Positions 7,369-60,878 of a stretch of 64,000 nucleotides of DNA are shown here, piece after piece (position 1 is the stretch's first letter; every line of letters begins with the position of its first letter). Location of the stretch: the IMG/VR virus record IMGVR_UViG_3300037493_006316, positions 22,224-86,223 of that record. The stretch is one strand, 5' to 3'. The notes beneath the pieces are model-generated. The model did not search any database and had not been told where the DNA came from. It saw only the letters and a program-made list of their open reading frames with translations. Source of the DNA: a virus. Position numbers and translations under genes: made by a program.

Positions 7369-7854
7369 ATGCTAACCACGGCTTTCGCCCTGGCCTCCTA
7401 CATACACGCGGGCCAACGCTACGGCAACCGTCCGTTCATCAGCCACGTCATCGACGTGCACGAAGTCATCGCCGCGCTCTACCCCGACGACGTCGAGCTT
7501 CAGGCCGCCGCCTACCTCCACGACGCCATCGAAGACGCCCCTGAAGGCATGGACGCGCGGCAGATGATCGCCGTGCGCTGCGGCGCCGGTGTGCTCGCCT
7601 TGGTCGAGGCCGTCACCGACGAGCCCGGCGAGACCCGCGCCGAGCGCAAGGTCAAGACCCTGCCGAAGACCGCCGCGGCCGGCTGGCGCGCGGTGGCCCT
7701 GAAGCTGGCTGACCGCAGCTGCAACATGCGCGGCCAGGCCCACGCCGCCATGTACCGGGCCGAGCTGCCCGCCTTCCGCGCCGCGCTCTTTCCGGTCACC
7801 GCTGAGCGCCCCGAGTTGGCGCCGCTGTGGGCCGGGCTGGGGGTGGTGTCGTGA
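7369..7854 (+). CDS. RelA/SpoT-type HD hydrolase (Mesh1/small alarmone hydrolase-like)
   Basis: HAGQRYGNRPFISHV, AAYLHDAIED, LVEAVTD, LKLADRSCNMR; GGAG RBS. Confidence 0.85.
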   Translation: MLTTAFALASYIHAGQRYGNRPFISHVIDVHEVIAALYPDDVELQAAAYLHDAIEDAPEGMDARQMIAVRCGAGVLALVEAVTDEPGETRAERKVKTLPKTAAAGWRAVALKLADRSCNMRGQAHAAMYRAELPAFRAALFPVTAERPELAPLWAGLGVVS

Positions 7855-8609
7855 TCGCCTGGATTGCCACCGACAACTCGGATGGCGGCCCGCTCGCCTT
7901 CGACCATGACTTTGTGGCCATCGCCGAGGGCTACGAGCGCCTCGGCTACGAGGTCAAGGCCCTGCGGACCACGATCAACCCGCACCAGACCCGCCCGGTG
8001 GACATGGGCGGGGTGACGGCCGAGACGCCCGTGGTCGGCGACCTGCGGCTGCTGCCGCGGCTGGTGACCGCCCTTGGCGGTCGGTGGGAGCCGATGCCGT
8101 CGTGGCCGGAGCAGCTCCGGTACTACATGCGCCGCGACCTGTCCGAGATCCGCGCCGAGGATGCCATCGACCGCATCCTCAACGGCGAGCGCCTGTTCCT
8201 GAAGCTCGATCACAAGTGGCTGCCGGGCGCGATCTACGACCTGGGCAACGTCGAGGCGCTGATGAACATCCACGAGGGTACGTTGCTCATGCGGTCGGAG
8301 ATCGTTGACTTTGCGGCTGAGTGGCGCATCTTCTACGATGAGCACGGCGAGGTGGAGCACATGGCGCAGTATCGCGGTGAGGCCCATCCCATCGGTGACG
8401 CGCACTTCGAGCACGTCCGGTCGGCCGGCAAAGCCTTCGGCCGCGCTCCGGCCGGGCTCAGCATTGACTTCGGCGTCACGCGCGGCTGGCACCTGCGCGT
8501 CGTCGAGGCGCACGCCGGGCCCGCCCTGGGGCTCTACGGCCTGCCCCCGCTTCTGGCTGCCCAACGGCACCTCCGCGCATGGCGCGCGTGCTTCGAGGTG
8601 GCGCCATGA
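7851..8609 (+). CDS. ATP-grasp protein (R2K/DUF4343-like)
   Basis: LFLK, SEIVDFAAEWRIF, IDFGVT, VVEAHAGPALGLYG; GTGA coupling. Confidence 0.7.
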   Translation: MIAWIATDNSDGGPLAFDHDFVAIAEGYERLGYEVKALRTTINPHQTRPVDMGGVTAETPVVGDLRLLPRLVTALGGRWEPMPSWPEQLRYYMRRDLSEIRAEDAIDRILNGERLFLKLDHKWLPGAIYDLGNVEALMNIHEGTLLMRSEIVDFAAEWRIFYDEHGEVEHMAQYRGEAHPIGDAHFEHVRSAGKAFGRAPAGLSIDFGVTRGWHLRVVEAHAGPALGLYGLPPLLAAQRHLRAWRACFEVAP

Positions 8610-9022
8610 CGCCCTGGGTCGCCCTCCTGGCCATCGACGACGACCGCGACCGCTACGCAGAGCTGGCCCGCCGGCTGGCGCCGCACCGCGTGGCGGTGCT
8701 GGTCATGCACGAGGTCACCCGCGTCGAGCGGCGCCTGTCGACCGCGTCGACCGCGCTGCCCCTGGTCGGGATCTTCCTCGACCGAGACATGCCGGAGCGC
8801 GTGGGCGAGGACTGGGTGGCGCACCTGCCCGTCGATCTGCCGGTGTGCGTGTCGAGCGCCAACCGGGCCATGGCTCGGGTCGTCGCGGCGCGCCTGCGCG
8901 GCCGGGGCATCCACCACGTCGTGATGAGCGCGCTGGACGCCTCGCCCGAGTGGCCGTGGATGGGGTGGGCGCTCGACGTGGTCGGTCGACATCGGCTTGC
9001 GGCCGCCCAGGCCCCGCGGTAG
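8606..9022 (+). CDS. cyclic-phosphate-processing receiver-like domain protein
   Basis: LLAIDDDRDR...IFLDRDM...GEDWV...VSSANR matches the LDD.R / LDHDLG / G.D / HSAN pattern; ATGA coupling. Confidence 0.6.
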   Translation: MTPWVALLAIDDDRDRYAELARRLAPHRVAVLVMHEVTRVERRLSTASTALPLVGIFLDRDMPERVGEDWVAHLPVDLPVCVSSANRAMARVVAARLRGRGIHHVVMSALDASPEWPWMGWALDVVGRHRLAAAQAPR

Positions 9023-9060
9023 GCTGGCGACGTTCTTCGCCGTCGCGCTTTCGGCGCTTG

Positions 9061-9098
9061 AGGCCCGCTGGGATGTCCCCGGCGGGCCTTTCGCTGTT
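9061..9098 (+). terminator. intrinsic terminator of the + strand operon
   Basis: 12-bp stem aggcccgctggg-atgtc-cccggcgggcct followed by ttcgctgtt. Confidence 0.6.
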
Positions 9099-9233
9099 GG
9101 CCTTGTTGCTGTTCCAGGGCCCTGGCTGCAACAAGGCGCGCCGAACCGTCCCCATGTTGCAGCCCGTTGCCATCGCAGCCGCTGCCGCGGCGCGCTACCT
9201 TCTCGCTCGGCTCGAACGGACGGAAGGTGCCCC

Positions 9234-9494
9234 ATGGCGCCACGGAGGGACGTGCACCGCGCAGACCCACCGCCCGCCGACGACCCGCGCCACCGGCTCT
9301 CGCTTTGGCTCCTGTCGCAGTTGACCCGGCCGAAGATCGGCGAACCGATGCTGATGCACCTGATGGTCGGGATTCTGCTGCTGCTCATGATGCAAGGAGG
9401 CCCCCGGTTGGGGAGCCTCCTCAGGTTGGCCTTCGCGGCCGGCCGGCTCTACGGACAGACCGCAGAGCGGCTTAGAGCGGCTCGGGGTAGGTGA
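9234..9494 (+). CDS. small membrane protein
   Basis: GGAAGG before ATG; hydrophobic MLMHLMVGILLLLMM. Confidence 0.4.
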   Translation: MAPRRDVHRADPPPADDPRHRLSLWLLSQLTRPKIGEPMLMHLMVGILLLLMMQGGPRLGSLLRLAFAAGRLYGQTAERLRAARGR

Positions 9495-21360: not shown

Positions 21361-23171
21361 TTGCCGCTCCCGGCCGGGCCAACCCCGGACCCAGGCGTGT
21401 TCATGGCGCGCCCGGCGTTGTCTGGCGACTGGCCGAGAATGCCGATCCGCGTGGCGTATTCGGAGGGCGAGAAGTCACGCACCCAAGCTGCGGTCTCGCC
21501 TGCTTGGTTGACCATCTCGGGCACCCCGCGCTGGACGCCTTGCGCGGCGCCGCGGAAGAACTCTGGCGCGCCCATGTTGCGGCTCGCCCCTTCAATGGCG
21601 CCGGTGAGCTCTTTCAGCGCGCCGACCGCGCCGCTGACCATGCCCGGGATGTCGCTCGCCTTGAAGCCCGTCAGGTTGCCTAGGGTCTTGACGAGGTCCA
21701 TGACCATGTCCCGCAGGCCCATGATGAGCGTCGTGGCCGGCCCACCGATGGCCATCTGGATCGCCTCGGTCTCGACGGCGAACCCTTCACCAGCGCCGAT
21801 GCGCCCGGGGGCCCGGCCAAGGCCCGCGAACCCGCTCTTGCCGTAGGTCGCGCGCTCGCCCTGGTCGAGGCTGCCCATGAACGCGCGCAGAGCCTCGGGG
21901 TCGCCCTCGCCGATGACCCCTTGCAGCTGCGCAAGGCCCTCCGCCGTCCCGAAGCGGTCGACCATGGCCTCGAGCTCGTGCGCCTTGAGCGCGCCGCCCG
22001 TGGCGCTTTTGAGCGCCTGGAAGGTCGCCGTCCGGCCAAGCCCCATGCGCTGGAAGCCGGCGAACATGTCGGCGATGTTGCGCGGGTCGTAGGCGCCGGC
22101 CTCCAGACGCTTCTGGGCCTCGATGTAGCCGGGCCCGCCCTCTTCGCCGTAGCCCATCATCCGCAGCCGGAAGACGTCGGTGGCTGGGTTGCGCATGCCC
22201 TCGGACAGGCGCCCGAGCAGCTCGGCTGCCGAGCGTCCGCGCCCCCGCTCGTCGCCGGGGCCGAACGCCATCCCGGGGATCTGCGTCAGGGCGGCGAGCT
22301 GATCCAGGTCAGCGCGACCGGTCTGCCGGAACATGGCCTCGGCCAACGTCGTCTGCGACTCCAAGAACTCGCCCAGGCGGCCCTGGCCCATGCCCTGCAG
22401 CGAGGCCCGGCCGGCCATGCGGGCCATCTCCGAGCTGGTCAACTGCCCGCCCGACAGGTTGCCGATGCGCCCCAACGTGGCCGCGGCGGTCTGCGGGTCC
22501 AGGCCGCGGTCGCGGGCGAACCCGACGATGCGGTTGTAGTCGCCGCGGGTCACCTGGTCGGTTTGCCGGCCGAGAGCCTCGACGATGGCGGCGTTCTTGC
22601 TGATCGTGTAGCCGTAGCTGTAGCCGAAGGTCGCGACCTCGCTGCCGGTCTCGCGGAACTGGCGCCCCAGCTGCGTGACGGTGCCCGACAGCTCCATGAA
22701 CTTCGAGGCCGCTGACGACAGGATGCCGATCAGGCTGGTGCCCAGGCCGAAGCCTGCGGCGGCCGCGGCGCCCTGCGCCAAGCTCGACGCCGTGTCGCGC
22801 CAGCCCGAGCCCTCTCGCTGCGGCGCCTGGGGCCGCCCCAGGCTGCCACCCTGGCCGCCCTGGGCCGGCGCGGGGCCCGGCGCCGGAGCGCCGCCCTGTG
22901 GGCCGCCAGCGCCGGGAGGCGGGGGGCCAAGGCCGCCACCGGCCGGCGGCGGGGTGCCTGGCGGCGCCGGCGGCGCGGCCGAGGGGGACGGCGGGGCGCC
23001 TGCGTTGGCGCCTCCGCCCACAGCGCCCGCGCCGCCCGGGGCGCCCGCCAGAGAGGCCAGGGCCATGCTCAGCGCGTCGGTGTCCGCCTTGGCGCCGCGC
23101 AGCTCGGCACGGAGCGCCTGCAAGCCCGCCAGCTCGGCCTGTGTGCGGATCTTCAGGGTGGTCTCACCCAT
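21357..23171 (-). CDS. tape measure protein
   Basis: 604 aa Ala/Gly-rich helical protein after tube and chaperones. Confidence 0.75.
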   Translation of the reverse strand: MGETTLKIRTQAELAGLQALRAELRGAKADTDALSMALASLAGAPGGAGAVGGGANAGAPPSPSAAPPAPPGTPPPAGGGLGPPPPGAGGPQGGAPAPGPAPAQGGQGGSLGRPQAPQREGSGWRDTASSLAQGAAAAAGFGLGTSLIGILSSAASKFMELSGTVTQLGRQFRETGSEVATFGYSYGYTISKNAAIVEALGRQTDQVTRGDYNRIVGFARDRGLDPQTAAATLGRIGNLSGGQLTSSEMARMAGRASLQGMGQGRLGEFLESQTTLAEAMFRQTGRADLDQLAALTQIPGMAFGPGDERGRGRSAAELLGRLSEGMRNPATDVFRLRMMGYGEEGGPGYIEAQKRLEAGAYDPRNIADMFAGFQRMGLGRTATFQALKSATGGALKAHELEAMVDRFGTAEGLAQLQGVIGEGDPEALRAFMGSLDQGERATYGKSGFAGLGRAPGRIGAGEGFAVETEAIQMAIGGPATTLIMGLRDMVMDLVKTLGNLTGFKASDIPGMVSGAVGALKELTGAIEGASRNMGAPEFFRGAAQGVQRGVPEMVNQAGETAAWVRDFSPSEYATRIGILGQSPDNAGRAMNTPGSGVGPAGSGN

Positions 23172-34678: not shown

Positions 34679-35482
34679 TCAGCCGATGTGGCGGATGTCG
34701 GGCCAGATCAGCGCCGCCCGGCGGTAGGTCGCCGGCCACCAGCGTTGCAGCCACTGGAAGTGCAACTCGGCCATGTAGGTGTCGAGCCCGACGACGAACC
34801 ACGAGTGCCGCATGGCCAACGCGTCGGCGCCGATGTCGATGCAGCCGTAGACCGGGTGCAGCGGCACCTTGTTGGCCCACAACATTGCGTGCACGTCCAG
34901 CGCGGTCCACGCCCGCAGAGGCGCGGCGCGCCAGGTGCCGTCGGCGATCTGGTAGAACGCGCCGCGCGACCACAGCAGCATGCGGCGGCGCTTGTTCTCC
35001 TCGGCGCGCAGGCCCCAGAACATCGAACGCCCCGCGCGTGTGCGGTTGGCGGCATCGAACCAGGGCCCGGACAGCGCGCCGCGGCGCTGGTCATCGGTGG
35101 AGCCGTCGAGCGGCCGCGAGGTGTCGATCTGCACCCACGGCAGCTCCAGCGAGCATTCGACCTCGAGCGCAACACGCTGCAGGTAGGTCTCCTCTCCCTC
35201 CCAGCACAGATCGTCGCGCAGCGACAGCAGCGGCACCCGAACGCCGGCCTCTCGCAGGATCAGCGCCAGCGCCGTCGAGTCCTTGCCGCCGGACACGCTG
35301 GCCTGCCAGGCGTCTGCTCGGGTCATGGCTGAGCGGACCACGTCAACGGCCTCGGCGCGGCGCCGGGCGAACTCGCGGCTGTTCGCGTGAAGCATCACCT
35401 GCCGCGCCGGGTAGCGAACGCCCCAGTCGTCGCGGTCGGGCATCGGGCCGTCCCACCAGCCCTCAAGCGCCTCACGCCGCAT
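34679..35482 (-). CDS. cysH: CysH-like / PAPS-reductase-family protein (type IV-B associated)
   Basis: PP-loop SVSGGKDS, WGLRAEENKRR, PLRAWTALDV...VPLHPVY; no C-terminal ECG motif of true sulfate-assimilation CysH. Confidence 0.85.
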   Translation of the reverse strand: MRREALEGWWDGPMPDRDDWGVRYPARQVMLHANSREFARRRAEAVDVVRSAMTRADAWQASVSGGKDSTALALILREAGVRVPLLSLRDDLCWEGEETYLQRVALEVECSLELPWVQIDTSRPLDGSTDDQRRGALSGPWFDAANRTRAGRSMFWGLRAEENKRRRMLLWSRGAFYQIADGTWRAAPLRAWTALDVHAMLWANKVPLHPVYGCIDIGADALAMRHSWFVVGLDTYMAELHFQWLQRWWPATYRRAALIWPDIRHIG

Positions 35483-36218
35483 GCAGCACGCCCCACCCTT
35501 CGCTCCGATGGGCCCCCAGCGCAGTGTGCGGCGGCAGCACGGCGTTGCAGACGAAGTCGCAGACGAAGCCCACGGCGCGCGCGCCTTGGCCGCGGGCTGG
35601 CCGCTCGAAGGACACCGGCACCAGCCGCAGCGTCGACGAGTCGATGACGACGTGGGGCACGATGGACTGCCGCAGCACGCCGAGCTCGCCCAACAGCGTC
35701 ACCACCGCGGCCGACAGGTAGTGCCCAGCCCAGGCCAGCTCGAGCATGTCGTTGCCGCGCGGGCGCCGCTGATCCACGACGCTGCTCGGGAAGATCGGCG
35801 ACCGCAGGCTGTAGCGCCGCCAGGACTTGCCCAGGTACTGCGCGTCGGTCTCGCCGACCTCAAGCTCGCACCCGCGCACCTCGAGGACCTCGCCGGCCGG
35901 CAGGCGCAGAGCGCGCACCCGGCCCAACAGCGCGGCGTTGGTCGCGGCCCGCGGCCCGACGAAGTACAGCTCGGGCACGTCAAACACGCGGTAGTGCACC
36001 TCGGACGGGCGCGCCGACGACTGCGCATCGTCGCCGTGGTTGTGCCACGACACGGACGCGCCGCAGAGGTCCTCGATCTGCTTGACGACCGCGCCGCGCA
36101 GGATGCGCGCCGGTTTGCGCCGCCAGTCGCAGTCGAGCCGCGCCAGCGCCCAAGGGGTGCGGCGCACCCAGGGGTAGCCCTCGACCTCGGCGCCGAGCGG
36201 CGGCAGCTCGGGCGTCAC
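35472..36218 (-). CDS. Cas6-like RAMP protein
   Basis: C-terminal Gly loop LGAHRSEGWG (GxxxxxGxG), YSLRSPI, GFVCDFVCNAVLP; N-terminal ILRGAV, WHNH, VHYR; GTGA coupling to csf3. Confidence 0.65.
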   Translation of the reverse strand: MTPELPPLGAEVEGYPWVRRTPWALARLDCDWRRKPARILRGAVVKQIEDLCGASVSWHNHGDDAQSSARPSEVHYRVFDVPELYFVGPRAATNAALLGRVRALRLPAGEVLEVRGCELEVGETDAQYLGKSWRRYSLRSPIFPSSVVDQRRPRGNDMLELAWAGHYLSAAVVTLLGELGVLRQSIVPHVVIDSSTLRLVPVSFERPARGQGARAVGFVCDFVCNAVLPPHTALGAHRSEGWGVLHAA

Positions 36219-36877
36219 CGCGACACCGTCTGCCAGCACGCCACCGCGCGCCCCACCTGGTGGTAGGGCGGCCGGGTTGGCACGAAGGTTTGCCGCACGC
36301 GCCCACGGGGCAACTCCGCCACCGCGTCGACCGGCAGGTGCCGCAGGCGCACCTCAGCGGCGTAGGCCGCAAGCTCAGGCCCGCCCGGGTCGTCGATGAC
36401 CTCCCAGCGGCGCACCCAGCCCCACCCGTGCGTGCGGCGGGCTCCGATGCCGTCGATGTAGCTGAGCGCCGTCGCAATGGCCTCGGGATCACCGATGCAC
36501 GTCCACGACACCTCGTTCATCTCCACCCGCGAGTAGAGCGGCACCCGGAGGCTCTTGTCCGGGCCGGCGCCGCTGTCGATGTTGCGCACGCCGTCGAGCA
36601 GCTCGGCGATGTGCCCCGCGTGCCGGCGGTGCGCGTAGCTGAGCGCCTCCATGCCGTGGAGCACCGCCTGCGACGCGGCCCACCACCAATCGCCCCCGGC
36701 CTCGACCCGGGCGAGCGGCAGGGGCAGCGCGTCGGCCTCGTCGAGGTCCATGATGCCGCCCGGCAAGTTGTGGCAGGCCACCTGCGCCACGCCGGCGAGA
36801 AGCAGCCCGTCGAGCATCGGCGGCACCTTGAGCAGCGCGGGCTGCGCAAGGTGCGCGGTGACCCTGAGCTTTCTCAC
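36215..36877 (-). CDS. csf3: type IV CRISPR effector Cas5 (Csf3)
   Basis: LRVTAHL, MLDGLL, LPLPLAR, WWWAASQ, GPDKSLRVPL, WTCIGD, IGARRTHGWGWV, PTRPPYH; AAGGAG RBS. Confidence 0.85.
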   Translation of the reverse strand: MRKLRVTAHLAQPALLKVPPMLDGLLLAGVAQVACHNLPGGIMDLDEADALPLPLARVEAGGDWWWAASQAVLHGMEALSYAHRRHAGHIAELLDGVRNIDSGAGPDKSLRVPLYSRVEMNEVSWTCIGDPEAIATALSYIDGIGARRTHGWGWVRRWEVIDDPGGPELAAYAAEVRLRHLPVDAVAELPRGRVRQTFVPTRPPYHQVGRAVACWQTVSR

Positions 36878-37899
36878 AGGTTCAGCTCCTTGCGGATCTG
36901 CTCCGCGTTGGCCCGCACGTGCTCCGCGTAGGCCGTGGCAAAGGCCTCGGCCGACGGGTCGATGCTCTCGGCGTGCTCGAGGGCCTCGGCGGACGCGACC
37001 GTGACCGGCACCGGGCCGCCCACGCCCCGGGTGCGGCTGGCGACGGCGATCCGCACCGCGCACTGACCGTGCCCCTTCGAGGACGCCCCGCCCAGGTGCG
37101 CCCCGCTCGAGATCCAGCGTGTCAGCGCGAGCATCAGGCAGGCGGCTTCGTTGTCGGTGGCGTCGGTGAGCCGGATGGTGCACACCATCGGCGTTCCGGG
37201 CGCGATGGCTTGGAACGCGTGGGGCATGCTCTCGTTGGCCTCGCGGCGCTCATCCTTGCCAGCCGCCTTGCCCTTCCGGGCCGCGGCCGCGTCCTCGATC
37301 TGCCGGAGCTCGGCCGGGGGCAGCAGCGCCGCGGCGTGCGAGGTCTTCAGGTCGTGCCGGTAGTAGGTGATCGGCGTGGGGCTCTCGATCAGGTGGTGCG
37401 GCAGAGGCGGCTGGCCACCGAACAGCAGAGGCTTGAGCCCGGCGGCGCCGACGTCGATCAGGCCGCTGCCCACCGTCAGGTCGGTGTAGGGCATGACCGT
37501 CGAGACCTGCACACGGCCGCGCATGATCATCGCGCCATCCATCGCGCCAAAGACGCTGAGCACGGGCAGCAGGTCGCGCATGCGCCGGGCCTCGTCGAGG
37601 TTGGCCACGCGGTCGCTGCCCTCCATTTTGCCGCCCTTGAACAGCAGGCGCAGGCCGTCGCGGTTGACCTCGGAGATGCCTGCGAGCTGCAAGAACAGCA
37701 GGCCCGCGTGCTCGCGCAGGGTGGCCTTCATCGCGGCGCCGGACACGCAGGCGACGTCCTCCTGGCCCCAGCGGCCGTCGCGACAGACGTTGAGCGTTCG
37801 GCGGTGCAGCTCTTGCTCGTTGCCGTTGTTGCCGGCCCCATGGGTCAGGGCCGTGCGGGGCGTGATCTCGAGCACGAAGGTGTAGCTGTGGCGGGTCAT
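36874..37899 (-). CDS. csf2: type IV CRISPR effector Cas7 (Csf2)
   Basis: TALTHG, VSGAAMKATLR, LLFKGG, LPVLSVFGA, MRGRVQV, YYRHD, MPHAFQAIAPGT, HLGGASSKGHG; AAGGAG RBS, ATGA coupling. Confidence 0.88.
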   Translation of the reverse strand: MTRHSYTFVLEITPRTALTHGAGNNGNEQELHRRTLNVCRDGRWGQEDVACVSGAAMKATLREHAGLLFLQLAGISEVNRDGLRLLFKGGKMEGSDRVANLDEARRMRDLLPVLSVFGAMDGAMIMRGRVQVSTVMPYTDLTVGSGLIDVGAAGLKPLLFGGQPPLPHHLIESPTPITYYRHDLKTSHAAALLPPAELRQIEDAAAARKGKAAGKDERREANESMPHAFQAIAPGTPMVCTIRLTDATDNEAACLMLALTRWISSGAHLGGASSKGHGQCAVRIAVASRTRGVGGPVPVTVASAEALEHAESIDPSAEAFATAYAEHVRANAEQIRKELNL

Positions 37900-38402
37900 T
37901 CGGTCTCCTTGGCGTAGGCGCGGACCTGCCGCAGCCAGTCGATGAGCAAGCCGGTGGCCTGGATGACCTGCTCCATGCCCTCCCGGCTGCGGAGGGTGGT
38001 CCAGGTGTCGAGGCCGAGCTCCTGCCCGGCGCCGGCGGTGCCGCAGGCCCTGCGCCACCACAGAGCGCTCTCTGCGTGCAGCGCGTCGCCGCGGCAGCCC
38101 AGGCCTTGCAGGACGTTCAGGCCCCAGGCCTCGAGGCTGTGCGAGCGCGAGCGCGCGCCGCGCATGCGGGCGCCCAGCCGCTCCTGCGCCTCGAAGCCCT
38201 TGAGGCTCTTGAGGTTGCCGGTCGTGTAGCCGGCCCGCCAGGCGAGCACCCCGAAGTAGGCCGGAGCGATGACCTCAGCCGAAAAGGCTGAGCTGTCGTC
38301 GAGCAGGCCCGTCGGCACGAGGGCGCGCAGCAGGTGCGTCGCTCTCTCGGGCTCGCTCAGGGGCTTGAGGTACTCCAGCGCCGGGGTCGGCAGCTCGATC
38401 AT
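37896..38402 (-). CDS. small alpha-helical subunit, Cas11/Csf4-like by position
   Basis: 168 aa helical protein between csf1 and csf2; AGGAG RBS before ATG 38402. Confidence 0.6.
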   Translation of the reverse strand: MIELPTPALEYLKPLSEPERATHLLRALVPTGLLDDSSAFSAEVIAPAYFGVLAWRAGYTTGNLKSLKGFEAQERLGARMRGARSRSHSLEAWGLNVLQGLGCRGDALHAESALWWRRACGTAGAGQELGLDTWTTLRSREGMEQVIQATGLLIDWLRQVRAYAKETE

Positions 38403-39453
38403 GGATGGGCTCCTGCGGCGCGGGCGCCGCCTTGGGGGTGACGGGCGCCGGGGGCGTGGCCCTGATGGCGTCGGTCGACGGGCGGATGGCCTCGGCCAGC
38501 TCAAGCAGCGCCGAGCCGCGCCAAAGTCGGATGATGGGGTCCCAGGTGCGCGCCGCCAGCACGATCTGCGCGTCACCGCGAGGCCGATAGGCGCCGCTGA
38601 GCACCTCTTCGGGGTGCGCGCCGGCGCGGATCAGCTCTTCCATCGCCCGCAGCACGGCGGCCAGATCGGCAGGCGCGTAGCAGACGAGGCCCGGGCCGTT
38701 GCAGTAGACGCTCTGCACCTCGACGCGCCCGTCGCTGATGGGCGCGAGGTAGGCGCAGTGCTTCTGGCCGTCGCCCATGCTGAGCGACCAGGGCGCCGCC
38801 GGGGGGTTGAGCAGCACGCCGCGGATGACCTCGCGGTCGGCCGGGCGCTGAGCCTTGAGTGCGTGCCAAGCGCCGTCGATGACCAGGTGGTCGTAGTTGC
38901 GGAACTTGCCCACCATGGCCGCGCCGACGTCGGCCTCATCCAGCGTCGCCAGCAGCGGCAGCTCGGGCGGCATCGTCGACAGGTCGCCGCCGGCGGCCGC
39001 TGCTCGAGCCGCAAGCCAGGCCGCCTCAAGCGGCGCGCCGCGCTTGCCCTGTGGCGGCCGCGCGAAGACGTAGACCGTCGAGCCGGGCCCGCGGCAGATG
39101 GATGCCTTCGCGCCGCGGTCGCCGCCGAGGCTCAGCGAGACCTTGCCGTCGCCGTCGAGAGCCGCCTGCAACTGCGGCGCCCAGACCGCGCGCGGCAGGC
39201 TCACCCAGTCGGACAGCGACCACCCGCAGGCGTGGCAGAGGAACGCGCTGTCGAGGATGGCGGGCCCGCGCGGGATTGTCGCGTGGAAGCTGTCTGGCAG
39301 CGTCGAGATCGGCCGGCCGGAGCCGCCCAGGTCAACGCCGCACCACCAACACCCGGCGCCTTGCGGCGCGGGCTCGGCCTGCTCTGCGGTGGGGCGACCG
39401 GCGGCGCGCCACATGAGCGCGACGCCGGTCCTGGGGCTGGTCGAGGGCTTCAT
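38275..39453 (-). CDS. csf1: type IV CRISPR large subunit Cas8-like (Csf1)
   Basis: CWWCG...LCHAC Zn finger, FRNYDHLV..GAWH, LLNPPAAPW, GDGQKH; C-terminal QLSLFG. Confidence 0.8.
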   Translation of the reverse strand: MKPSTSPRTGVALMWRAAGRPTAEQAEPAPQGAGCWWCGVDLGGSGRPISTLPDSFHATIPRGPAILDSAFLCHACGWSLSDWVSLPRAVWAPQLQAALDGDGKVSLSLGGDRGAKASICRGPGSTVYVFARPPQGKRGAPLEAAWLAARAAAAGGDLSTMPPELPLLATLDEADVGAAMVGKFRNYDHLVIDGAWHALKAQRPADREVIRGVLLNPPAAPWSLSMGDGQKHCAYLAPISDGRVEVQSVYCNGPGLVCYAPADLAAVLRAMEELIRAGAHPEEVLSGAYRPRGDAQIVLAARTWDPIIRLWRGSALLELAEAIRPSTDAIRATPPAPVTPKAAPAPQEPIHDRAADPGAGVPQAPERARESDAPAARPRADGPARRQLSLFG

Positions 39454-39468
39454 GCCCTCTGCGTAATC

Positions 39469-40758
39469 TCAGGCCCCGGAGGGTGCAACGAGAGACCAGT
39501 CCGCCGGGCCCGCCTTCGGCCCGGCCTCCCACCGGATCTTGTCCTGCCGGGCCAGCGCCGGATCGCCCACCACGCCCGCGCGGGCGCCGCCCGGGTCGCG
39601 GCCGGGGATCTTCGCGACGGGGCGCAGGCCCTTGTCGGCGAGAGCCTTGTAGGTCGCGCCCTCCTCGCTGCTCAGGCTGTAGGTCACCAGCTTGCTGGGC
39701 ACCGCACGCGCAGCGAGCTGCCAGACGTCGAGCACCCGGGCGACCAGCTTGCTGGCCGCGCCCTTGACCGTGCCGTCGGTCGCCACCCGGGTCAGCTCCA
39801 CGACGCCGTGCGGGTCCGCGTACCGCGCCGTCGGGGCGTTGCAGACCGCAACACCCACAAGCCGAGCGCCACGGGCGACCCCGATGCAGAACAGCAGCCC
39901 GCGCGGGTTCGCCTCGGGCAGTGCGCTATGGTGCCGCTGCACGAAGTCGAAGGCGTCGCGCTTGCTCACCGGAACCAAGCGCAGTTCGGCGTCATCGCTG
40001 AGACTGTCGACCAGCACGGCCAGGGCCGCCCACTCCGGGAGCTCGAAGCCGTCGCCGATGGTCTTGCCGCCGCGGCCCGCGCCACCCACGCGCCACCGCC
40101 AGTCGGGCTCGTGTCGGCCCCAGACGTGAAGCGCCAAGCAGGTGACCAGCACCGCCAGATCAGCTTGCTCAACCGCGCTCAGCTCGCGGCCCGCTGCGTC
40201 CTGACCGGGCACGCCGACCAGCTCGGCCAGGGTCCACGCGTCGGGCTCTTCATAGGGGTCGTCGGGGTCGTCGAGGTCGTCGACCTGCCCCATCTCGCGG
40301 TCCCACGCCCACTTCATCTCGGGCTCGTTCATCATCGCGTGCGCCAGCGACAACATCGCCGAGGCCATGCCGAACGCGCGCACGTCGGCGTCGGGCAGCG
40401 GACGGAACGCCCGCGTCCCGGGCACGGGCTCAGCTACCGCGCCGAAGCGGTCATGCAGCGTGACGGGGGCGGCCTGGAACATCGTGGCCTGGGCGCCGAC
40501 GGCGCCGCGGAAGCGCTCGGCGTCCCCCATGGCCTCGACGTCGGACGCGAACCGCCCCTCGATCACCCCGTCGCGCCGCAGCTCGTAGCGGAGCGCAGCC
40601 TTGACGAGGTCCACATCAAGCCGGTTAGCCACAGCCACCACGAACGACGCGCCGTGGCGCCGGACCGTCCAGGTGCCGTCTTCCTGTCGCCGCCAGGGGT
40701 CGTCGCGCAGGCCGTCGAGCTTGGCCTCGCGGGGCAGGATGTGCAGGCGCATGGTCAC
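39469..40758 (-). CDS. Mom/XF1762-like GNAT DNA-modification protein with unknown N-terminal domain
   Basis: DAFDFVQRHHS, FCIGV, LVGVAVCNAPTAR, VELTRVATDG, AASKL, LVTYSLSSEEGATYKA, KIRWE. Confidence 0.75.
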   Translation of the reverse strand: MTMRLHILPREAKLDGLRDDPWRRQEDGTWTVRRHGASFVVAVANRLDVDLVKAALRYELRRDGVIEGRFASDVEAMGDAERFRGAVGAQATMFQAAPVTLHDRFGAVAEPVPGTRAFRPLPDADVRAFGMASAMLSLAHAMMNEPEMKWAWDREMGQVDDLDDPDDPYEEPDAWTLAELVGVPGQDAAGRELSAVEQADLAVLVTCLALHVWGRHEPDWRWRVGGAGRGGKTIGDGFELPEWAALAVLVDSLSDDAELRLVPVSKRDAFDFVQRHHSALPEANPRGLLFCIGVARGARLVGVAVCNAPTARYADPHGVVELTRVATDGTVKGAASKLVARVLDVWQLAARAVPSKLVTYSLSSEEGATYKALADKGLRPVAKIPGRDPGGARAGVVGDPALARQDKIRWEAGPKAGPADWSLVAPSGA

Positions 40759-41345
40759 CGCCGAGGCCGGGTTGCGCGGAGGGCGCCCTCCATCGCCGCG
40801 GCCTGTTTGAGGACCTCGTCATAGCGCGCTGGGTCGTGCGATACCACGCGCTGCAGCGCGCTCATCGCCTCGTCGTAGGCGCGAAGCATGGCCGCGGGCG
40901 GCATTTCGCCGCGCTCGATCAGCGGCATCATCTCGGCGCGCCGCAGCTCGACGGCGGCCGCCGCCTCGACGTCGTCGCACAGAGCCACCGGCGGCGCGAA
41001 GGCTGCCAGCGAGAGCTGCGCCGACCCGACGCGCACCGGCTCGCAGCCGTCTGGGCGCGGCTCGAGCGCCAGCTGCTCGCCCTTCGGCTCACCCGTGCCG
41101 GCCGGCGGCGCCGGCGGCAGGCGCCGCTCTGTGGGCACCCGGCCGTGCGGCCGCACCGTCACCGCGCCAGCCTCCGTGCGCCGGACGTGACCCCGCACAG
41201 GCACGCCGGGCGCCTTGGGGATGGGCAGCAGCGCCAGCGGGCGCCCAGGGCCCGCCACGCGCACTGCGGCGCCCTCCAGGCCCTGGGGCGTCGCCGGCGC
41301 CGTCGCGGCAGATTCCGCCTTGCGCAGCACGAGGCGGGCCTGCAT
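40755..41345 (-). CDS. probable internal head protein
   Basis: N-terminal LVLRKA; basic VRGHVRRT..G.VTVRPHGR motif; TGATG coupling. Confidence 0.5.
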   Translation of the reverse strand: MQARLVLRKAESAATAPATPQGLEGAAVRVAGPGRPLALLPIPKAPGVPVRGHVRRTEAGAVTVRPHGRVPTERRLPPAPPAGTGEPKGEQLALEPRPDGCEPVRVGSAQLSLAAFAPPVALCDDVEAAAAVELRRAEMMPLIERGEMPPAAMLRAYDEAMSALQRVVSHDPARYDEVLKQAAAMEGALRATRPRR

Positions 41346-43438
41346 CAGTCCTCCACGGTGGCGTAGCCGTAGGCGGCGAACGCGCTCACGCTGCGGTCGG
41401 GAATGGCTTCGACGGCAGCCCACTGCTGCTCGGCGACCTCGACAACGCGAGCGAACTCGGCCTGCGCCGGGGTGTTCTGGTACGTGTCGCCCGTGGCGAG
41501 GATCACCAAGCGGATCTGCTCGCCGCCCACCTCGAGCTTGTCGTTCAGTCCCAGCGAGGCCTTGGTCCCAAACACCTTCCGCGCATGCGCGGTCGGCTCG
41601 TCGGCGCCGAACACCCTGTCGAGCACGTCGCGCGTCGGGCACTCGCCGACCCGCATGGTCAGCGTGCGCGTCGCCGGGCTCCAGTCCATGCCCACGAGGT
41701 GACCCTGCAGGCCCCCGGGCTCGGGCTGCACCCACCCGTCGGACTCGGCCGAGGCCCAGGCGTCGGCAGCAGCCGCCTGCGGGCGGCAGTCCTTGAGCCC
41801 CCGCGCCGCGCCGGCCAGGCGCCGGGCCAGCCGCACGGCCAGGGTCTCACCCTGCTTGCTCGGGCCCAGGAAGCGCAGCCGCGCGATGCAGTCCCGGGCG
41901 GTCTCGGCCGCGGCGAGGTCCTCCATCGCCTTCGTCGCCCACAGGTGCGTGGCGCCCTCCATGCGGAAGGCGGACGCCACAGGGTCGCCGGCCTCGATGT
42001 CGAGCCGGGCGTGGCCCTCGATCCAGGCCGCCGGAACCGACACGGGCTCGTCGCCCAGCAGGGCGCTCACCGCCTCGCGCATGGCCCAGGACGCGGCGCA
42101 CTGCGCGCGCCAGAGGTTCGCGCTGGCCCGGGGGTGCAGGGCATCGTCGAGCGCGCCGGCGCGGGTCGCCGGCAGGGTGTAGGCCATGTCGTGGCTCACC
42201 CAGGCGATGAGCGCCGCGGCGCGCGGGCCGGCGGCGATCTCCATTGCGTCGAGAATGGCCGCAAGGTGCATCATCCCGGCGTGAATGTGCCGCGCACCGC
42301 GGTCGGCCTGCCGCGCGCGCCAGGCTTCGACCTCCTGGTGGAGGATCTTCTGCGCAACGTCGGCGATGATGACCGCCGCAGTGATCGGCGCCACCTGCGC
42401 CATAGCCAGGGCCCGCGCGACCTCGGTCACCGCCTTGGTCGCCCGCCCCGCGTTGGTCTGGTCGATCCAGCCCGCGGTCACCGCCTCTGCGAAGTAGCGG
42501 CCGGCTTGGCTGGCGATGGAGTACCCGGGCTCAATCTCGATGGGGTAGCGGCGCGCCATCTCGGCTTGCACCACGGTCCAGTCGGCCGCGGCGTCCACCC
42601 GCTCGGCCGGGCCCATGGTGGCCCACCCGGGCGGCAGCTTGAACGGGGCATCGGCGAACTCCAACCCGTCGCCCCACGTCGCCGCCGACACCGACTCGGA
42701 CGTGCTCACCGACTCAGAGCTGTCGTCGTCGTCGCCGAGCTCCTCGCCCACCTGCGCCCACTGGTAGGTGCCGTGGGCGGCCTTGACGGACTGGCCGCCG
42801 ACGTCGACCGTCAGGCCCATGCCGCCGACACCGGTGATCGTGCCGGCGCGCTGCTTGCCGTCGACCATGACGAGCACCGTCTCGCCCTGGGCCTTGGCCA
42901 GGCGCTCGGCGATGGCGCTCGGGCGGTCCAGGCGCGGGATCGTGCCCCCGGCGCGCAGCAGGTTGGCCAGCTCTTCGGCCGGCCACGCGGTCAGGCCGTG
43001 GAAGAACCCGCCGGCCGTGTAGGCGCTGCGGTAGAGCGCCTCGGCGTCGGCCGCGCTGGCCACCCCGATCACGACCTTGTCTTCGTCGATGGCCTGCGTT
43101 CCGGGGTGCTTCTGGTGCACCACGAAGGCCATCGGAGCTCCGAGGTCCGGCCCGACGAAGACGTCGACCGGATCGCCGTCGAGCGCGCTAATGGTGCCGG
43201 CCACCTCGCCGTAGTGCGCGGGCATCGTCACCCGCCAGCCGGGGCCGCTGCGGTCCTCGCCCTCGGCCGTCTCGATCAGCAGGGTCAGACCGCGCCAGAG
43301 CAGTGAGCCGACGTAGGGGTGCTCTTCGCGCCCGGGCGTCGGCGCCGGGGGCGGGAGCAGGACCGGGCTCTTGCGTGCGCCGCGGCTGTCGGCGAGCCGC
43401 TGCACCGCGCTTGGATCGAACACGTTGCGGCCCCTCAT
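41345..43438 (-). CDS. polyvalent protein: inorganic-pyrophosphatase-like domain plus HD-like domain
   Basis: HYGEVAGTISALDGDPVDVFVGP...VVHQ...DEDKVVIG; later DRGARHIH, SHDMAY, HPRASA. Confidence 0.7.
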   Translation of the reverse strand: MRGRNVFDPSAVQRLADSRGARKSPVLLPPPAPTPGREEHPYVGSLLWRGLTLLIETAEGEDRSGPGWRVTMPAHYGEVAGTISALDGDPVDVFVGPDLGAPMAFVVHQKHPGTQAIDEDKVVIGVASAADAEALYRSAYTAGGFFHGLTAWPAEELANLLRAGGTIPRLDRPSAIAERLAKAQGETVLVMVDGKQRAGTITGVGGMGLTVDVGGQSVKAAHGTYQWAQVGEELGDDDDSSESVSTSESVSAATWGDGLEFADAPFKLPPGWATMGPAERVDAAADWTVVQAEMARRYPIEIEPGYSIASQAGRYFAEAVTAGWIDQTNAGRATKAVTEVARALAMAQVAPITAAVIIADVAQKILHQEVEAWRARQADRGARHIHAGMMHLAAILDAMEIAAGPRAAALIAWVSHDMAYTLPATRAGALDDALHPRASANLWRAQCAASWAMREAVSALLGDEPVSVPAAWIEGHARLDIEAGDPVASAFRMEGATHLWATKAMEDLAAAETARDCIARLRFLGPSKQGETLAVRLARRLAGAARGLKDCRPQAAAADAWASAESDGWVQPEPGGLQGHLVGMDWSPATRTLTMRVGECPTRDVLDRVFGADEPTAHARKVFGTKASLGLNDKLEVGGEQIRLVILATGDTYQNTPAQAEFARVVEVAEQQWAAVEAIPDRSVSAFAAYGYATVED

Positions 43439-57586: not shown

Positions 57587-59032
57587 CTACCAGCGGTCAC
57601 GGGCGGCGGGCTTGGTCTTCGGGCTCGACTTGGCCGGCGCCTCGCTGTGCGTGTAGTCGATCTCGAGCGCGCGGCCGATGGTCCAGTCGACGGAGAGCTT
57701 CAGTGCCCACCCGGACTCCCCCGAGCGCGCCTTGCGCATGTAGATCCACAGCGGATCCTCTGCGGCATCGTCGTCACGCTGTGAGGGGCGGTCCAAGCAC
57801 ACGACCCAGTCAGCCGCAGCGGCGATCCGGTCGCTGCCCGCAAGGTGATGCAGCTGCGGCGGCCCATCGGCGCCCTGGCGGTTGATCTGCACCAGGCCCA
57901 CCATCGTGCACGTGTGCCGCTTCCCGCGCGCCTTGAGCGCGTCGCTGATCTCGCCGAGCAGCTGGTGCTCGTCGAGGTGACGGTAGGCCGGGCCGCCCTT
58001 GACCAAGCCCAGGTGGTCGATCACGATCAGCTCGGCCGGGTCAAGCGTCTGCCCCACGTCGATGTCGACGATCAGCTCGTCGAACGTCATGCCTGGCTTG
58101 TCGACGATCCGCAGGCGGTTGGTACGCATGGCCTCCAGTGCCGTGTGGAGTTGATCGACGTTCTCGGCGGGTAGCTGCCCGTTGAGGGCCGACGTGTAGG
58201 ACACCTGCGCGTCGTGGCCGGCGATCCGCAACAGCCACTCGAAGTAGGGCACCTCGAGGCTGTAGACCACGACCCGCTTCCCGGCCCGCAAGGCGGCGTG
58301 CACCGCTTGGGCGGCGATCATGGTCTTGCCCACCCCGGTCCGGGCCGCAATGACCCCGAAGTGCGTCGGTCGCCAGGGGTTGCGGCGGCGCCAGGTCAAC
58401 CACGGGACCGGCAGCCCGACCTCGGTGCCGCTGAGTCGGTCGGTGAAAGCCGCCTCAATGAGTCGCCGCGCTTCGTCGATCTGCTCGTCGAGCAGCAGGC
58501 CCTTGGTAGCCGACGACTGCGACAACGCCGCGGTGAAGATCGCCCGAGCGCTCTCGCCATCGCCATCGGCCGCCGCCGCGGCGGCCAGCTTCCCGGCCGC
58601 AGCCATGCGGCGGAACTCGGCAGCCGACTGGATCCGGCGGATGAGGTAGCCCAGCGACTGCATGCTGGGCGCGGCCACGCGGCTCAGCTCGTGGAAGTAG
58701 CCGTGGCCGCCGACCTTCTCGAAGAAGTCCTGACCGCAGCCGAGCGCGATGGCCATCTCGTCGAACGGCTCGCCGCGCATGCGGCGCCGCTCGATCTCGA
58801 CCGCCAGCACCCGGTGGCCGTCGCGGTGCCAGTCGTCGGGGTCGGGCATGCGCGGCAGGCGCGCGCCGTCCGCGGCGTCGAGCATGGGGGCGAGGAACGC
58901 CCCCAGCACGGACCTTTCGGCATCGACGGTGCGGGTGTGCACCGCGGCGTCGGGGTCGACTTGCACCGTGCGGGAGGCTGCGCTGATCAGCTCCCGGGGG
59001 GCCTTGGGTCGGCCCTGTGTGCGCGGGCTCAT
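57587..59032 (-). CDS. dnaB: DnaB-like replicative helicase
   Basis: AERSVLGA, Walker A AARTGVGKT, YSLE, IVIDHLGL, LVQINR, LAGSDRIAAAADWV, RKARSGESG. Confidence 0.9.
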   Translation of the reverse strand: MSPRTQGRPKAPRELISAASRTVQVDPDAAVHTRTVDAERSVLGAFLAPMLDAADGARLPRMPDPDDWHRDGHRVLAVEIERRRMRGEPFDEMAIALGCGQDFFEKVGGHGYFHELSRVAAPSMQSLGYLIRRIQSAAEFRRMAAAGKLAAAAAADGDGESARAIFTAALSQSSATKGLLLDEQIDEARRLIEAAFTDRLSGTEVGLPVPWLTWRRRNPWRPTHFGVIAARTGVGKTMIAAQAVHAALRAGKRVVVYSLEVPYFEWLLRIAGHDAQVSYTSALNGQLPAENVDQLHTALEAMRTNRLRIVDKPGMTFDELIVDIDVGQTLDPAELIVIDHLGLVKGGPAYRHLDEHQLLGEISDALKARGKRHTCTMVGLVQINRQGADGPPQLHHLAGSDRIAAAADWVVCLDRPSQRDDDAAEDPLWIYMRKARSGESGWALKLSVDWTIGRALEIDYTHSEAPAKSSPKTKPAARDRW

Positions 59033-60645
59033 CGGGCCGCCTGTGCCGACTGATCGGCCTCATCGTCGAACCAGGCGGCCACGAAGGCGGCCTCCTGCGC
59101 CGGCGTCGGGGCGAACGGATCGAAGGCCACCCCAGCGGCCTTGGCGAAGACCTGGGCCACTCGCAGGCGCTGAGCGGTGCCATCGGGCGTGGCCGCCGCT
59201 TGGGCCCACTCCGACCGCGCCTGCCTGCGGACCTCCAGGCCGGCGCTGGCCGGCACCCGCCGGCGGGCGGACAGGTACGAGGTCCACGCCTCGAGGCTCG
59301 CGCTGTCGTGGCCCAGGGGCCGACCGCCGGTGTCCCAGGCCTGTGCGGCCTCGAGGTTGCGGTCGACCTCGCGGAGGATCACCACGAAGTCGGGCGCTTG
59401 GCCGATGGGCTGCGGGTACTGAGGCGAGGTCGCCATCCATCGCCGGTTGCTCGGCGAACGCAGCATGAACGCGTGGACGAGGTCAATCTCGTGCCCCCGC
59501 GCCACAAGCTCCTGGGCCAGATCGGCCCGGGCGGCGAGGGCCTCGGCGGCGGTGACCGCTGCCGACAGGCCCGACTGCCGGGAGTCCAGGCGCAGCAGCG
59601 CCTTGGCCATGGCCGCCACGCTGGCCTGCGCGAACGACTCGCGCGGGGTGCCGCCCATGCCGAACACTGCGCGCCGGCGGCTGTCCAGGCGGGCCAGCAC
59701 TGTCTCGGCGCAGGCCACCACCGCGGCCTCCACCTCGGCCCGCGGCGCCCGCACAGCGCGACTGCGCGCTGGCAGGGTCTGCCCCCCTGCCACCAGCGTG
59801 AGCACCGGCCGGCAGGGGGCCTCGACGACCTCAAGCGCCTCTGGCGCTGGCGCGGCCGCCACGGGCTCTGCGGGCTCCTCCAGGCGCGCCTGGGCCTCGT
59901 GTGGGGCCTCCGGCTGGGCCTGCGCCATCGGCTGTGCCGTCAGGGCCGCCAAGGCAGCCTGCAGGCTGCCCAGCTGGGCCTCCAGGCGCCTGCGGGCCTC
60001 GCGCTCCGCTTCAAGCTCTGCCCTCAAGCTCTCGACGATGTCCATCAGCCCTCCGGCCGCGTCAGCGGCGGGGGTGGCGCCGACAGGCGCAGGGGGCGTA
60101 GCCCCCTTTGGGCCCCGGCCCCGAGCTCTATGTGTGAGGGGTTCTTGGAGCGGGTTGTATGGAGCGGGTTCGGTGCCACCGTGTGGCATACCCCCCTGCC
60201 ACCGCGTGGCAGCCCCCCTGCCATCCTGTGGCATACCCCCTGCCACGGGGCCGGGCTCCTCTGCCACCGCGCGGCAGGGGTCAGCGACCGTGGCAGGGGT
60301 GCCACGGCGTGGCAGGGTCAGGCGCTCGGCGCGCAGCTGGGCCACGCACTGCAGGCGGTCGGCGTCGAGATCGACCGTGCACCGCAGCGGCTCCCCGCGA
60401 CGCTGCGGCCGCTTGAGGAGCACGCCAGCCTCGAAGAGCAGGCGGCGCTCGGCCTGCACCTTGCCGCGGCTGGCCCGCGCGGCCTCGCACAGGTGCTTCA
60501 GGCCGGGCCAGGACTCACCCTGCTCTACTGGCAGGGTCGACGACTGGCAGGCGATGTACGCCCGCATGATCGCCACCTGAACCAAGCTCAGCGGGGCCCT
60601 GTCGAGCAGGTCGTAGGCCTGCAGCCGGGTCAGGGGCGCGCTCAA
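59029..60645 (-). CDS. replication initiator (lambda O-like, N-terminal wHTH); start uncertain, 60645 or 60756
   Basis: SWPGLKHLCEAARASRGKVQ...LFEAGVL HTH; internal iterons; ATGA-coupled to dnaB. Confidence 0.7.
   Translation of the reverse strand: MSAPLTRLQAYDLLDRAPLSLVQVAIMRAYIACQSSTLPVEQGESWPGLKHLCEAARASRGKVQAERRLLFEAGVLLKRPQRRGEPLRCTVDLDADRLQCVAQLRAERLTLPRRGTPATVADPCRAVAEEPGPVAGGMPQDGRGAATRWQGGMPHGGTEPAPYNPLQEPLTHRARGRGPKGATPPAPVGATPAADAAGGLMDIVESLRAELEAEREARRRLEAQLGSLQAALAALTAQPMAQAQPEAPHEAQARLEEPAEPVAAAPAPEALEVVEAPCRPVLTLVAGGQTLPARSRAVRAPRAEVEAAVVACAETVLARLDSRRRAVFGMGGTPRESFAQASVAAMAKALLRLDSRQSGLSAAVTAAEALAARADLAQELVARGHEIDLVHAFMLRSPSNRRWMATSPQYPQPIGQAPDFVVILREVDRNLEAAQAWDTGGRPLGHDSASLEAWTSYLSARRRVPASAGLEVRRQARSEWAQAAATPDGTAQRLRVAQVFAKAAGVAFDPFAPTPAQEAAFVAAWFDDEADQSAQAAR
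60174..60314. repeat. iteron array / probable replication origin
   Basis: Palindromic TGCCAC-N3-GTGGCA units at 60174, 60197, 60219, 60241 (half), 60262, 60281 (half), 60300; 19-23 bp spacing. Confidence 0.8.
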
Positions 60646-60734
60646 AGCGCACCACCCGCGCTGGGCGCAAAAAAACCGGGCACAGCCCGGTTGCGTGCAA
60701 AACTCTGGGGCGTCTGCCCCGTCTGTGATGGCAT
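60642..60734 (-). CDS. putative 30-aa leader peptide
   Basis: AAGGA RBS, ATG 60734, MPSQTGQTPQSFARNRAVPGFFAPSAGGAL; TGA overlaps the initiator TTG. Confidence 0.45.
   Translation of the reverse strand: MPSQTGQTPQSFARNRAVPGFFAPSAGGAL
60669..60692 (-). terminator. intrinsic terminator / attenuator upstream of initiator
   Basis: AACCGGGC-TGT-GCCCGG-TTTTTTT, perfect stem plus 7 U. Confidence 0.8.
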
Positions 60735-60878
60735 TGACTTTCCTTGGTGAAGTCACTCGGAAAGTGCGAGGGCACCGCGGTTTCGTCTGGCCGGACTACA
60801 CCGCGGTTGCCGCTTCTGCGGCCGCCCTCGACACCCACCAAGGACACAATGGACACCGCCAACCTCATGCCGGTCGGC
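60669..60878 (-). ncRNA. candidate ~210-nt structured leader RNA / ncRNA
   Basis: Bounded by promoter and terminator; nested complementary blocks (see findings). Confidence 0.5.

Follow-up and report, generated by a model that had tools for sequence, protein, structure and literature searches.

Why should the large subunit of a phage-encoded type IV CRISPR-Cas cassette end in what looks like the docking peptide of a DNA polymerase? This question is raised by csf1, a Cas8-like gene in a complete phage genome (IMG/VR record IMGVR_UViG_3300037493_006316), of which positions 22,224 to 86,223, a stretch of 64,000 nucleotides (nt), form the window to which the coordinates below refer. csf1 is the first gene of a csf1-(cas11)-csf2-csf3 operon and extends 128 nt into the following gene, in a different reading frame, to terminate in QLSLF, a candidate binding motif for the bacterial sliding clamp (beta clamp, DnaN). 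Comparison of the two frames indicates that this terminal motif is kept by selection on the Csf1 frame, and the Csf1 tail is likely to be a beta-clamp-docking tether.

Csf1 ends in a candidate clamp-binding motif encoded within the next gene

csf1 and its end comprise the following features:

38275..39453, minus strand: csf1, type IV Cas8-like large subunit, 392 amino acids (aa) (translation, PADLOC typeIV_Cas8, hhalign, seven homologs)
38296..38475, minus strand: Pro/Ala-rich variable Csf1 linker, residues 327-386 (composition, homolog variation)
38281..38295, minus strand: QLSLF, candidate beta-clamp-binding motif, residues 387-391 (read from the sequence)
38275..38402, minus strand: dual-coding overlap of csf1 and the next gene, 128 nt in two frames (read from the sequence)
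38410..38414, minus strand: AGGAG ribosome-binding site of the next gene, within the coding region of the csf1 tail (read from the sequence)

The initial annotation had described Csf1 as entering the next gene by 128 bp through a Pro/Ala-rich linker and ending in RRQLSLFG, with an AGGAG and an ATG at 38402 belonging to the overlapped gene, and every one of these points is borne out. Translation of the open reading frame 38275..39453 gives the C-terminus ...PRADGPARRQLSLFG-stop, so that csf1 finishes in RRQLSLFG-stop; the motif is trailed by a Gly codon (38278-38280) and then by the stop TGA (38275-38277). Linker and motif share DNA with the first 42 codons of the next gene, a candidate for the small subunit (cas11) read in the other frame, and the final 107 nt of the linker coding sequence lie inside that gene. 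The ATG of the next gene occupies 38402-38400, with AGGAG (38414-38410) located 7 nt upstream. So long an overlap is peculiar to the csf1 end, later genes of the cassette being joined by ordinary 4-nt overlaps. It has the same size of 128 nt in three related loci (L001, L002 and L007), and contigs from all four of four other metagenome runs are free of indels in 38275-38402. The motif codons are unchanged among the substitutions listed for these contigs, ten less supported differences being outside that list.

Residues 327-386 are composed of 22% Pro and 27% Ala (49% together) and only 7% hydrophobic residues, compared with 31% in the core, and the linker is probably disordered. Csf1 thus appears to consist of a folded core with a Cys4 N-terminal domain and a conserved C-terminal domain, a linker of about 60 residues and a terminal short linear motif.

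The Csf1 frame keeps the motif while the overlapped protein drifts

Close homologs and two deep lineages retain the terminal motif. Alignment A1 consists of the query and seven homologs from other assemblies (47-99% identity), and RQL[S/G]LFG forms the terminus in all eight rows (7/7 homologs and the query). The linker differs in length and sequence among these close homologs while the motif is constant. Nine related loci (L001-L009) were also fetched. At 30% identity, the Csf1 of L005 ends in ...VQLGLFGSGGPG, and that of L009, at 28% identity, ends in ...VQLSLFGG. Retention of a terminal QLxLF by homologs, put forward as a check when the motif was first noticed, therefore holds for seven of seven close homologs and for the deep lineages L005 and L009. 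Tail and motif are kept in these two lineages at lower third-position GC content (GC3 of 0.58 in L005 and 0.65 in L009).

In L005 and L009, the tail is written over the downstream protein at the same alignment position as in the window. The residues of that protein at the motif site are DSSAFSA (window), SSLAYSD (L005) and CSYRCSE (L009), and four loci with a tail-less Csf1 have ESLAFDP, LGIAYTQ or DCAARPE at the same site. Csf1 keeps QLxLFG while the overlapped protein drifts, which makes the Csf1 frame the conserved one at the motif.

Codon usage in the overlapped gene bears the mark of this constraint. In 23 long genes of the phage, whose GC content is 71.7%, TTT accounts for 7.7% of Phe codons, TCA for 1.8% of Ser codons and GCT for 5.9% of Ala codons. 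The overlapped gene has AGC TCA GCC TTT TCG GCT at codons 37-42, of which codons 38, 40 and 42 are rare. These rare TCA, TTT and GCT codons are placed exactly where Csf1 takes AGC (Ser), CTT-TTC (Leu-Phe) and the stop TGA. In L005 and L009, T-ending Tyr and Cys codons of the overlapped genes supply the first T of the Csf1 Phe codon. Forced rare codons and the comparison of frames across lineages together identify the Csf1 frame as the selected one at the motif, and on this evidence the terminal motif is kept by selection on the Csf1 frame. The locus offers a clear natural case of overprinting giving rise to a short linear motif, with the constraint visible as forced rare codons.

Motif-bearing tails recur across the Csf1 family

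A profile search returned 292 matches, the best 150 of which were examined, and the family counts given here and below refer to these best 150 of 292. The C-terminal end of the core is present in 141 of the 150 rows, and a tail was defined as at least 25 aa past the core. Tails are found in 85 of the 141 representatives, with a median length of 85 aa and a range of 29-175. The motif was defined as Q-aliphatic-x-[L/M]-[F/L], or the same with one extra residue, following PMC11139829. So defined, it is found in 45 of 85 tailed rows as against 1 of 56 tail-less rows when the last 12 residues are considered, and in 52 of 85 tails when the last 25 are. Across 2000 tail shuffles, the number of motif-bearing tails averaged 0.07 and reached a maximum of 2, compared with the 45 observed. 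Of the 150 rows, 39 have the strict form QLxLF among their last 15 residues, compared with a mean of 0.01 and a maximum of 1 when the last 60 residues were shuffled 2000 times; in the body of these proteins, only 3 instances were found in 40,612 positions. S, G, A or D usually fills the x position, and only 0-5 residues separate 38 of the 45 motifs from the C-terminus. The motif is trailed by Gly in 26 of the 45 and has Arg in front of it in 17.

A hand-checked alignment (A2) comprises the query and 31 of the top 39 representatives, eight fragments (P0009, P0028, P0034, P0036, P0040, P0041, P0043 and P0044) having been dropped. In A2, QLxL[F/W] ends all 17 tailed rows, and the other 15 rows are tail-less. 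A variable linker that exists only to carry a peptide would be the pattern expected of a tethered short linear motif. Tail state was mapped on a FastTree phylogeny of 139 core rows, leaving out additional homologs and 11 of the 150 rows (no core C-terminal end or fewer than 200 aa). It needs 30 changes on this tree, of which well-supported branches force at least 15, the tree being weak with divergent rows and an unknown root. This scattered distribution suggests that the tail was gained or lost repeatedly within the family.

The occurrence of the motif is not in itself significant. Among all six-frame open reading frames of at least 60 aa in the 86-kb phage, Q[LM]xLF is found once, in Csf1, without a second instance, and by a rough estimate one per 86 kb is about what chance would give. 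Its significance derives from the extreme C-terminal position and from conservation.

Profile scans of genome contigs with alignments A1 and A3 gave no relatives in named genomes, and tblastn searches with Csf1 against plasmids and phages likewise gave none. As a separate observation, L001 (3699-3713) and L007 (3736-3750) contain an internal RQMPLFK in an open reading frame of about 440 aa upstream of the cassette, roughly 100 residues before its end.

The Csf1 tail is a likely tether to the host sliding clamp

The terminal peptide of Csf1 conforms to the published description of clamp-binding peptides, as the initial annotation had stated when it called QLSLF a clamp-binding consensus: it fits Q-aliphatic-x-[L/M]-[F/L], the best binders being QLxLF (PMC11139829). 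The consensus of beta-clamp clients is given as QL[S/D]LF. Examples are found at the C-termini of E. coli Pol II (...QLGLF, dissociation constant KD 1.7 uM) and Pol IV (...QLVLGL) and also in Pol III alpha (PMC11139829). Csf1 resembles these clients in carrying Q-L-x-L-F at the extreme C-terminus with a free x position, and its variants fit the six-residue class. Several Csf1 homologs carry QLGLF, identical to the motif of E. coli Pol II. The carrier differs from the known clients: it is a Cas8-like subunit instead of a polymerase or repair protein, its motif is written in an overprinted frame, and its clamp binding is a prediction from sequence.

The phage presumably replicates with the replicase and clamp of its host. 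Its genome of 86,223 bp has direct terminal repeats, is 100% complete according to CheckV and encodes a major head protein, a portal, a large terminase (TerL) and a DnaB-like helicase. The whole 86,223-bp record contains no dnaN and no family A, family B or Pol III alpha polymerase. As the phage has neither a clamp nor a DNA polymerase of its own, host clamps are expected on its replicating DNA.

For docking, the motif would enter the hydrophobic cleft in the DnaN ring of the host. This would dock Csf1, and hence the Csf ribonucleoprotein, onto DnaN, probably together with its CysH-like partner, a member of the phosphoadenosine phosphosulfate (PAPS) reductase family encoded in the same cassette. 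Clamps are located on DNA at replication forks and behind them, so a docked complex would be concentrated on replicating DNA, and since the phage must use the host replicase, its own DNA would be among the targets. At forks, the complex might carry out modification through the CysH-like enzyme or the XF1762-family enzyme encoded next to csf1, surveillance, or interference with other clamp clients. DnaN binding and fork recruitment of Csf1 are what we infer from the motif and its context. A clamp-docking peptide on Csf1 yields a concrete and cheaply testable hypothesis, namely that the complex works on replicating DNA through DnaN.

A wider proposal, which we regard as tentative and somewhat doubtful, is that type IV-B Csf complexes include a large branch of sliding-clamp clients, which bring a CysH-like enzyme to freshly replicated DNA. 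An RNA-containing Csf filament would then ride on DnaN behind the fork, the adjacent XF1762-family protein would perhaps also be brought to nascent DNA, and phages and plasmids could mark or monitor newly made DNA as it is replicated. Overprinting of the beginning of the small-subunit gene would have created the motif, which family members would since have retained or lost on many occasions. If true, this would represent a prokaryotic, Cas-scaffolded counterpart of clamp-coupled DNA modification, for which the eukaryotic DNMT1-PCNA pair offers a parallel.

A number of observations weigh against a clamp-docking function of the tail. In four of the nine related loci (L003, L004, L006 and L008; 36-39% identity), csf1 stops where the next gene begins, and the 214-aa protein at the position annotated as type IV-B Csf1 on the Mycobacterium adipatum plasmid pMYC1 ends at the core and lacks the motif. 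In the family, 56 of 141 representatives end at the core, so the tail is dispensable, and 33 of 85 tails lack the defined motif in their last 25 residues. Many of these 33 finish in near-motifs (xSLF[D/G], LPGF, LPGFG or QLxLW) and a few end otherwise. The family counts themselves rest on the best 150 of 292 matches. Disorder of the Csf1 tail is suggested by its composition, and the nearest isolate phages, from varied hosts, share only about 29% TerL identity with this phage. In addition, the overlapped protein is also conserved in the close clade (MIELPTPALEYL...SSAFSAEV). SSAFS is as invariant there as the motif, the sole Ser-to-Gly change in the motif being silent in the other frame. Across the close-clade overlap, 12-13 Csf1-changing substitutions are silent in the other frame compared with 3-4 of the reverse kind. 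The predominance of Csf1-changing substitutions that are silent in the other frame indicates that linker similarity within the clade is largely hitch-hiking, and because the only motif change is silent in that frame, the close clade alone cannot tell which frame holds the motif.

Alternative explanations for the terminal peptide

The terminal peptide could be a functional short linear motif for a partner other than DnaN, with a coincidental resemblance to clamp-binding peptides; we consider this unlikely. The small subunit, Csf2, the CysH-like enzyme or another replisome protein would be candidate partners. What the frame comparison shows is selection on the motif and not the identity of the partner, and in Pol III alpha a C-terminal clamp motif has tau as a further partner (PMC11139829). 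The flanking Gly (26/45) and Arg (17/45) lie outside the published clamp motif. However, the core positions, the variants (QLxLW, QLxLPGF-like six-residue forms and QMxLF) and the terminal placement all match clamp definitions, and systems without a tail possess the same other subunits, so that a contact within the complex would be expected to be universal.

Alternatively, the tail may bind DnaN as a device for takeover or competition that displaces host polymerases, repair proteins or the clients of rival elements, a possibility to which we give a low probability. The same motif evidence would apply as for docking, and the genome, with its head, portal, terminase and DnaB-like genes, is that of a tailed phage of lytic type. 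Use of the beta clamp by a phage protein has also been published, for MuC of phage Mu (PMC12867686). The layout speaks against this explanation, as the motif belongs to a structural subunit within a Cas complex of several proteins and stands at the end of a long linker, which is the arrangement of a tethered client and not of a small inhibitor. Moreover, the phage appears to need the host clamp for its own replication, so that blocking the clamp would harm it.

A non-functional origin, with a frame open by chance in a 72% GC genome and a peptide conserved through the overlapped gene, is strongly disfavoured and in our estimate very improbable. High GC does give long open alternative frames, the overlapped frame is the more constrained one within the close clade, and the single QLxLF per phage genome is close to the rough chance expectation. 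These points are opposed by the three rare codons of the overlapped gene at positions that Csf1 needs, by the variation of the overlapped protein across lineages in which Csf1 keeps QLxLFG, and by the excess of motif-bearing tails over shuffles (45 of 85 against 0.07). GC content does not account for the pattern either: L005 and L009 keep tail and motif at lower GC, and in the high-GC homologs L003 and L008, Csf1 ends at the core. Finally, an assembly or sequencing frameshift that artificially extends csf1, a generic risk of metagenome contigs with nothing specific in its favour here, is refuted as far as contigs can show, given the same frame and 128-nt overlap in L001, L002 and L007, the extension shared by seven homologous proteins from other assemblies and the indel-free overlap in contigs of four of four other runs.

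Relation to type IV systems and to other clamp users

The identity of Csf1 is supported by profile matches and by its Cys-rich N-terminus. The protein matches the PADLOC typeIV_Cas8 profile PDLC01721 'Csf1_0_IV' (E 3.3e-12, residues 201-299) and the type IV-A large subunit profile PDLC01574 (E 4.4e-7); Pfam-A and NCBIfam gave no matches for Csf1. As a lead only, PF27781 Csf1 is present in 12% of the members of its nearest Atlas cluster (score 0.83). One further feature belongs to this region:

39226..39351, minus strand: Cys4 (CxxC...CxxC) zinc-finger-like N-terminal region, C35, C38, C73 and C76 (alignment A2)

These four cysteines are invariant in all 32 rows of A2, and hhalign matches the Cys-rich N-terminus to the pMYC1 protein at the annotated type IV-B Csf1 position (probability 93.7%, E 1.9e-7). 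A zinc-finger (Znf) N-terminal domain has been described for type IV-A Cas8/Csf1 (PMC11519345), with which the Cys4 N-terminus and the pMYC1 alignment of Csf1 are in line. The proteins of the P. oleovorans IV-A1 and K. pneumoniae IV-A3 systems share with Csf1 the combination of a zinc-finger N-terminal and a C-terminal domain (PMC11519345). By contrast with the phage cassette, in which no array was found, type IV-A works with DinG and a CRISPR array. A search of the PDB by sequence with the Csf1 profile A2 yielded one chance-level match only (E 0.26).

In gene content, the cassette resembles the type IV-B systems of Mycobacterium sp. JS623 (PMC7937560, PMC8175902) and pMYC1, which also combine csf1, a small subunit, csf2 and csf3 with a PAPS-reductase-family gene. 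Likewise, no array, adaptation genes or nuclease were seen, and the cassette is carried on a mobile element. It differs from the mycobacterial systems in the length of Csf1 (392 aa compared with 214 aa), which has an N-terminal extension, the linker and the motif, in possessing a Cas6-like gene and an XF1762-family gene directly upstream, and in a small subunit that is not recognisable as Cas11 by sequence.

If Csf1 does dock on DnaN as predicted, a Cas protein would join the proteins of mobile elements that make use of the sliding clamp of bacteria. TnsE of Tn7, an unrelated protein, is a mobile-element clamp user that serves in the choice of transposition targets. MuC of phage Mu is similar to the predicted behaviour of Csf1 in that a mobile-element protein lands on replicating DNA through the host clamp, and dissimilar in being an unrelated protein that serves transcription activation (PMC12867686).

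The initial annotation knew of no description of such a link for type IV effectors, and this agrees with the literature: a search of full text, outside supplements and subscription journals, turned up no paper in which a sliding clamp is associated with type IV, Csf1 or type IV-B. 'Clamp' and 'DnaN' are absent from the type IV-B structure paper and review (PMC7937560, PMC8175902), and in the type IV-A structure paper 'clamp' occurs twice, as a verb only (PMC11519345). The function of type IV-B is termed unknown in PMC8175902 and PMC7937560, and Csf1 is unresolved in the only type IV-B structure (PMC7937560, PMC8175902). While the motif side is textbook, Csf1 as its carrier is new in print as far as searched.

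Organization of the cassette and neighbouring genes

The remaining genes of the cassette and the gene next to csf1 are:

39469..40758, minus strand: 429-aa gene with a C-terminal XF1762-family domain (NCBIfam NF045478)
37896..38402, minus strand: 168-aa small-subunit (cas11) candidate (position between csf1 and csf2, five homologs)
36874..37899, minus strand: csf2, type IV Cas7 (PADLOC typeIV_Cas7, E 1.1e-40)
36215..36877, minus strand: csf3, type IV Cas5 (PADLOC typeIV_Cas5, E 2e-30)
35472..36239, minus strand: Cas6-like gene, weak C-terminal match only, start not fixed (PADLOC Cas6, E 8.1e-6)
34679..35482, minus strand: cysH-like gene of the PAPS-reductase family, type IV-B accessory (PHROG 424 and 2302)

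The 168-aa cas11 candidate occupies the place of cas11 in type IV-B and has homologs in all related loci. The candidate itself has no family matches in Pfam, NCBIfam or PADLOC, its profile (A4) found nothing in the PDB, and hhalign gave a probability of 2% against the pMYC1 gene at the cas11 position. The csf2 gene starts at 37899, its ATG overlapping the stop of the 168-aa gene (ATGA), and matches NCBIfam cas7_csf2 at E 1.4e-13 with 50.8 bits, under the curated cut-off of 130. Similarly, the GTG of csf3 at 36877 overlaps the csf2 stop (GTGA), and its match to NCBIfam cas5_csf3 (E 3.7e-15, 56.1 bits) lies under the curated cut-off of 140.

The Cas6-like gene lies between csf3 and the cysH-like gene and matches Pfam Cas6b_C under the cut-off (E 5.4e-4). 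This weak Cas6-like gene is a departure from the textbook IV-B layout, which lacks Cas6. No CRISPR array was found in the 64-kb window, nor in the whole phage by a scan for repeats of 22 nt with up to 2 mismatches and a spacing of 45-94. Positions 7800-9400 of the record, ahead of the window, likewise yielded no family of direct repeats. The cysH-like gene matches the phosphoadenosine phosphosulfate reductase families PHROG 424 (E 1e-11) and 2302 (E 6e-11) and is also present in L009 and pMYC1.

Only 15 nt separate the end of the 429-aa gene from csf1, and it may belong to the same operon. Its XF1762-family domain spans residues 261-388 (NF045478, E 2.3e-20, over the cut-off), and the first 260 or so residues have no family match. 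Further upstream of the cassette, at 41345-43438 on the same minus strand, a 697-aa protein is encoded that has an N-terminal PF18823 'InPase' domain (E 1.4e-24) and no assignment for its remainder.

Iteron-like repeats, a clamp gene in a related phage and distribution of the phage

Iteron-like tandem repeats of about 19-22 nt form two runs at 60174-60317, with units beginning TGCCAC...GTGGCA and Tandem Repeats Finder scores of 104 and 61. They are located downstream of the DnaB-like helicase gene (57587-59032) and of a 575-aa gene with no assigned family (59029-60756). Among the related phages, the 133-kb phage carrying L008, whose Csf1 is tail-less, encodes its own DnaN (L013, G002:C1:107676-108791; TIGR00663, E 1.4e-68, over the cut-off), a single case from which no correlation can be drawn. 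The csf1/small-subunit region (37896-39453) has copies of about 98-99% identity, over the pieces compared, in aquatic metagenome contigs from at least four other studies, and near-identical phage DNA is seen in freshwater, lake and sediment metagenome runs, with no RNA run among those listed. The near-identical copies across at least four other studies indicate that this phage lineage is widespread in fresh water.

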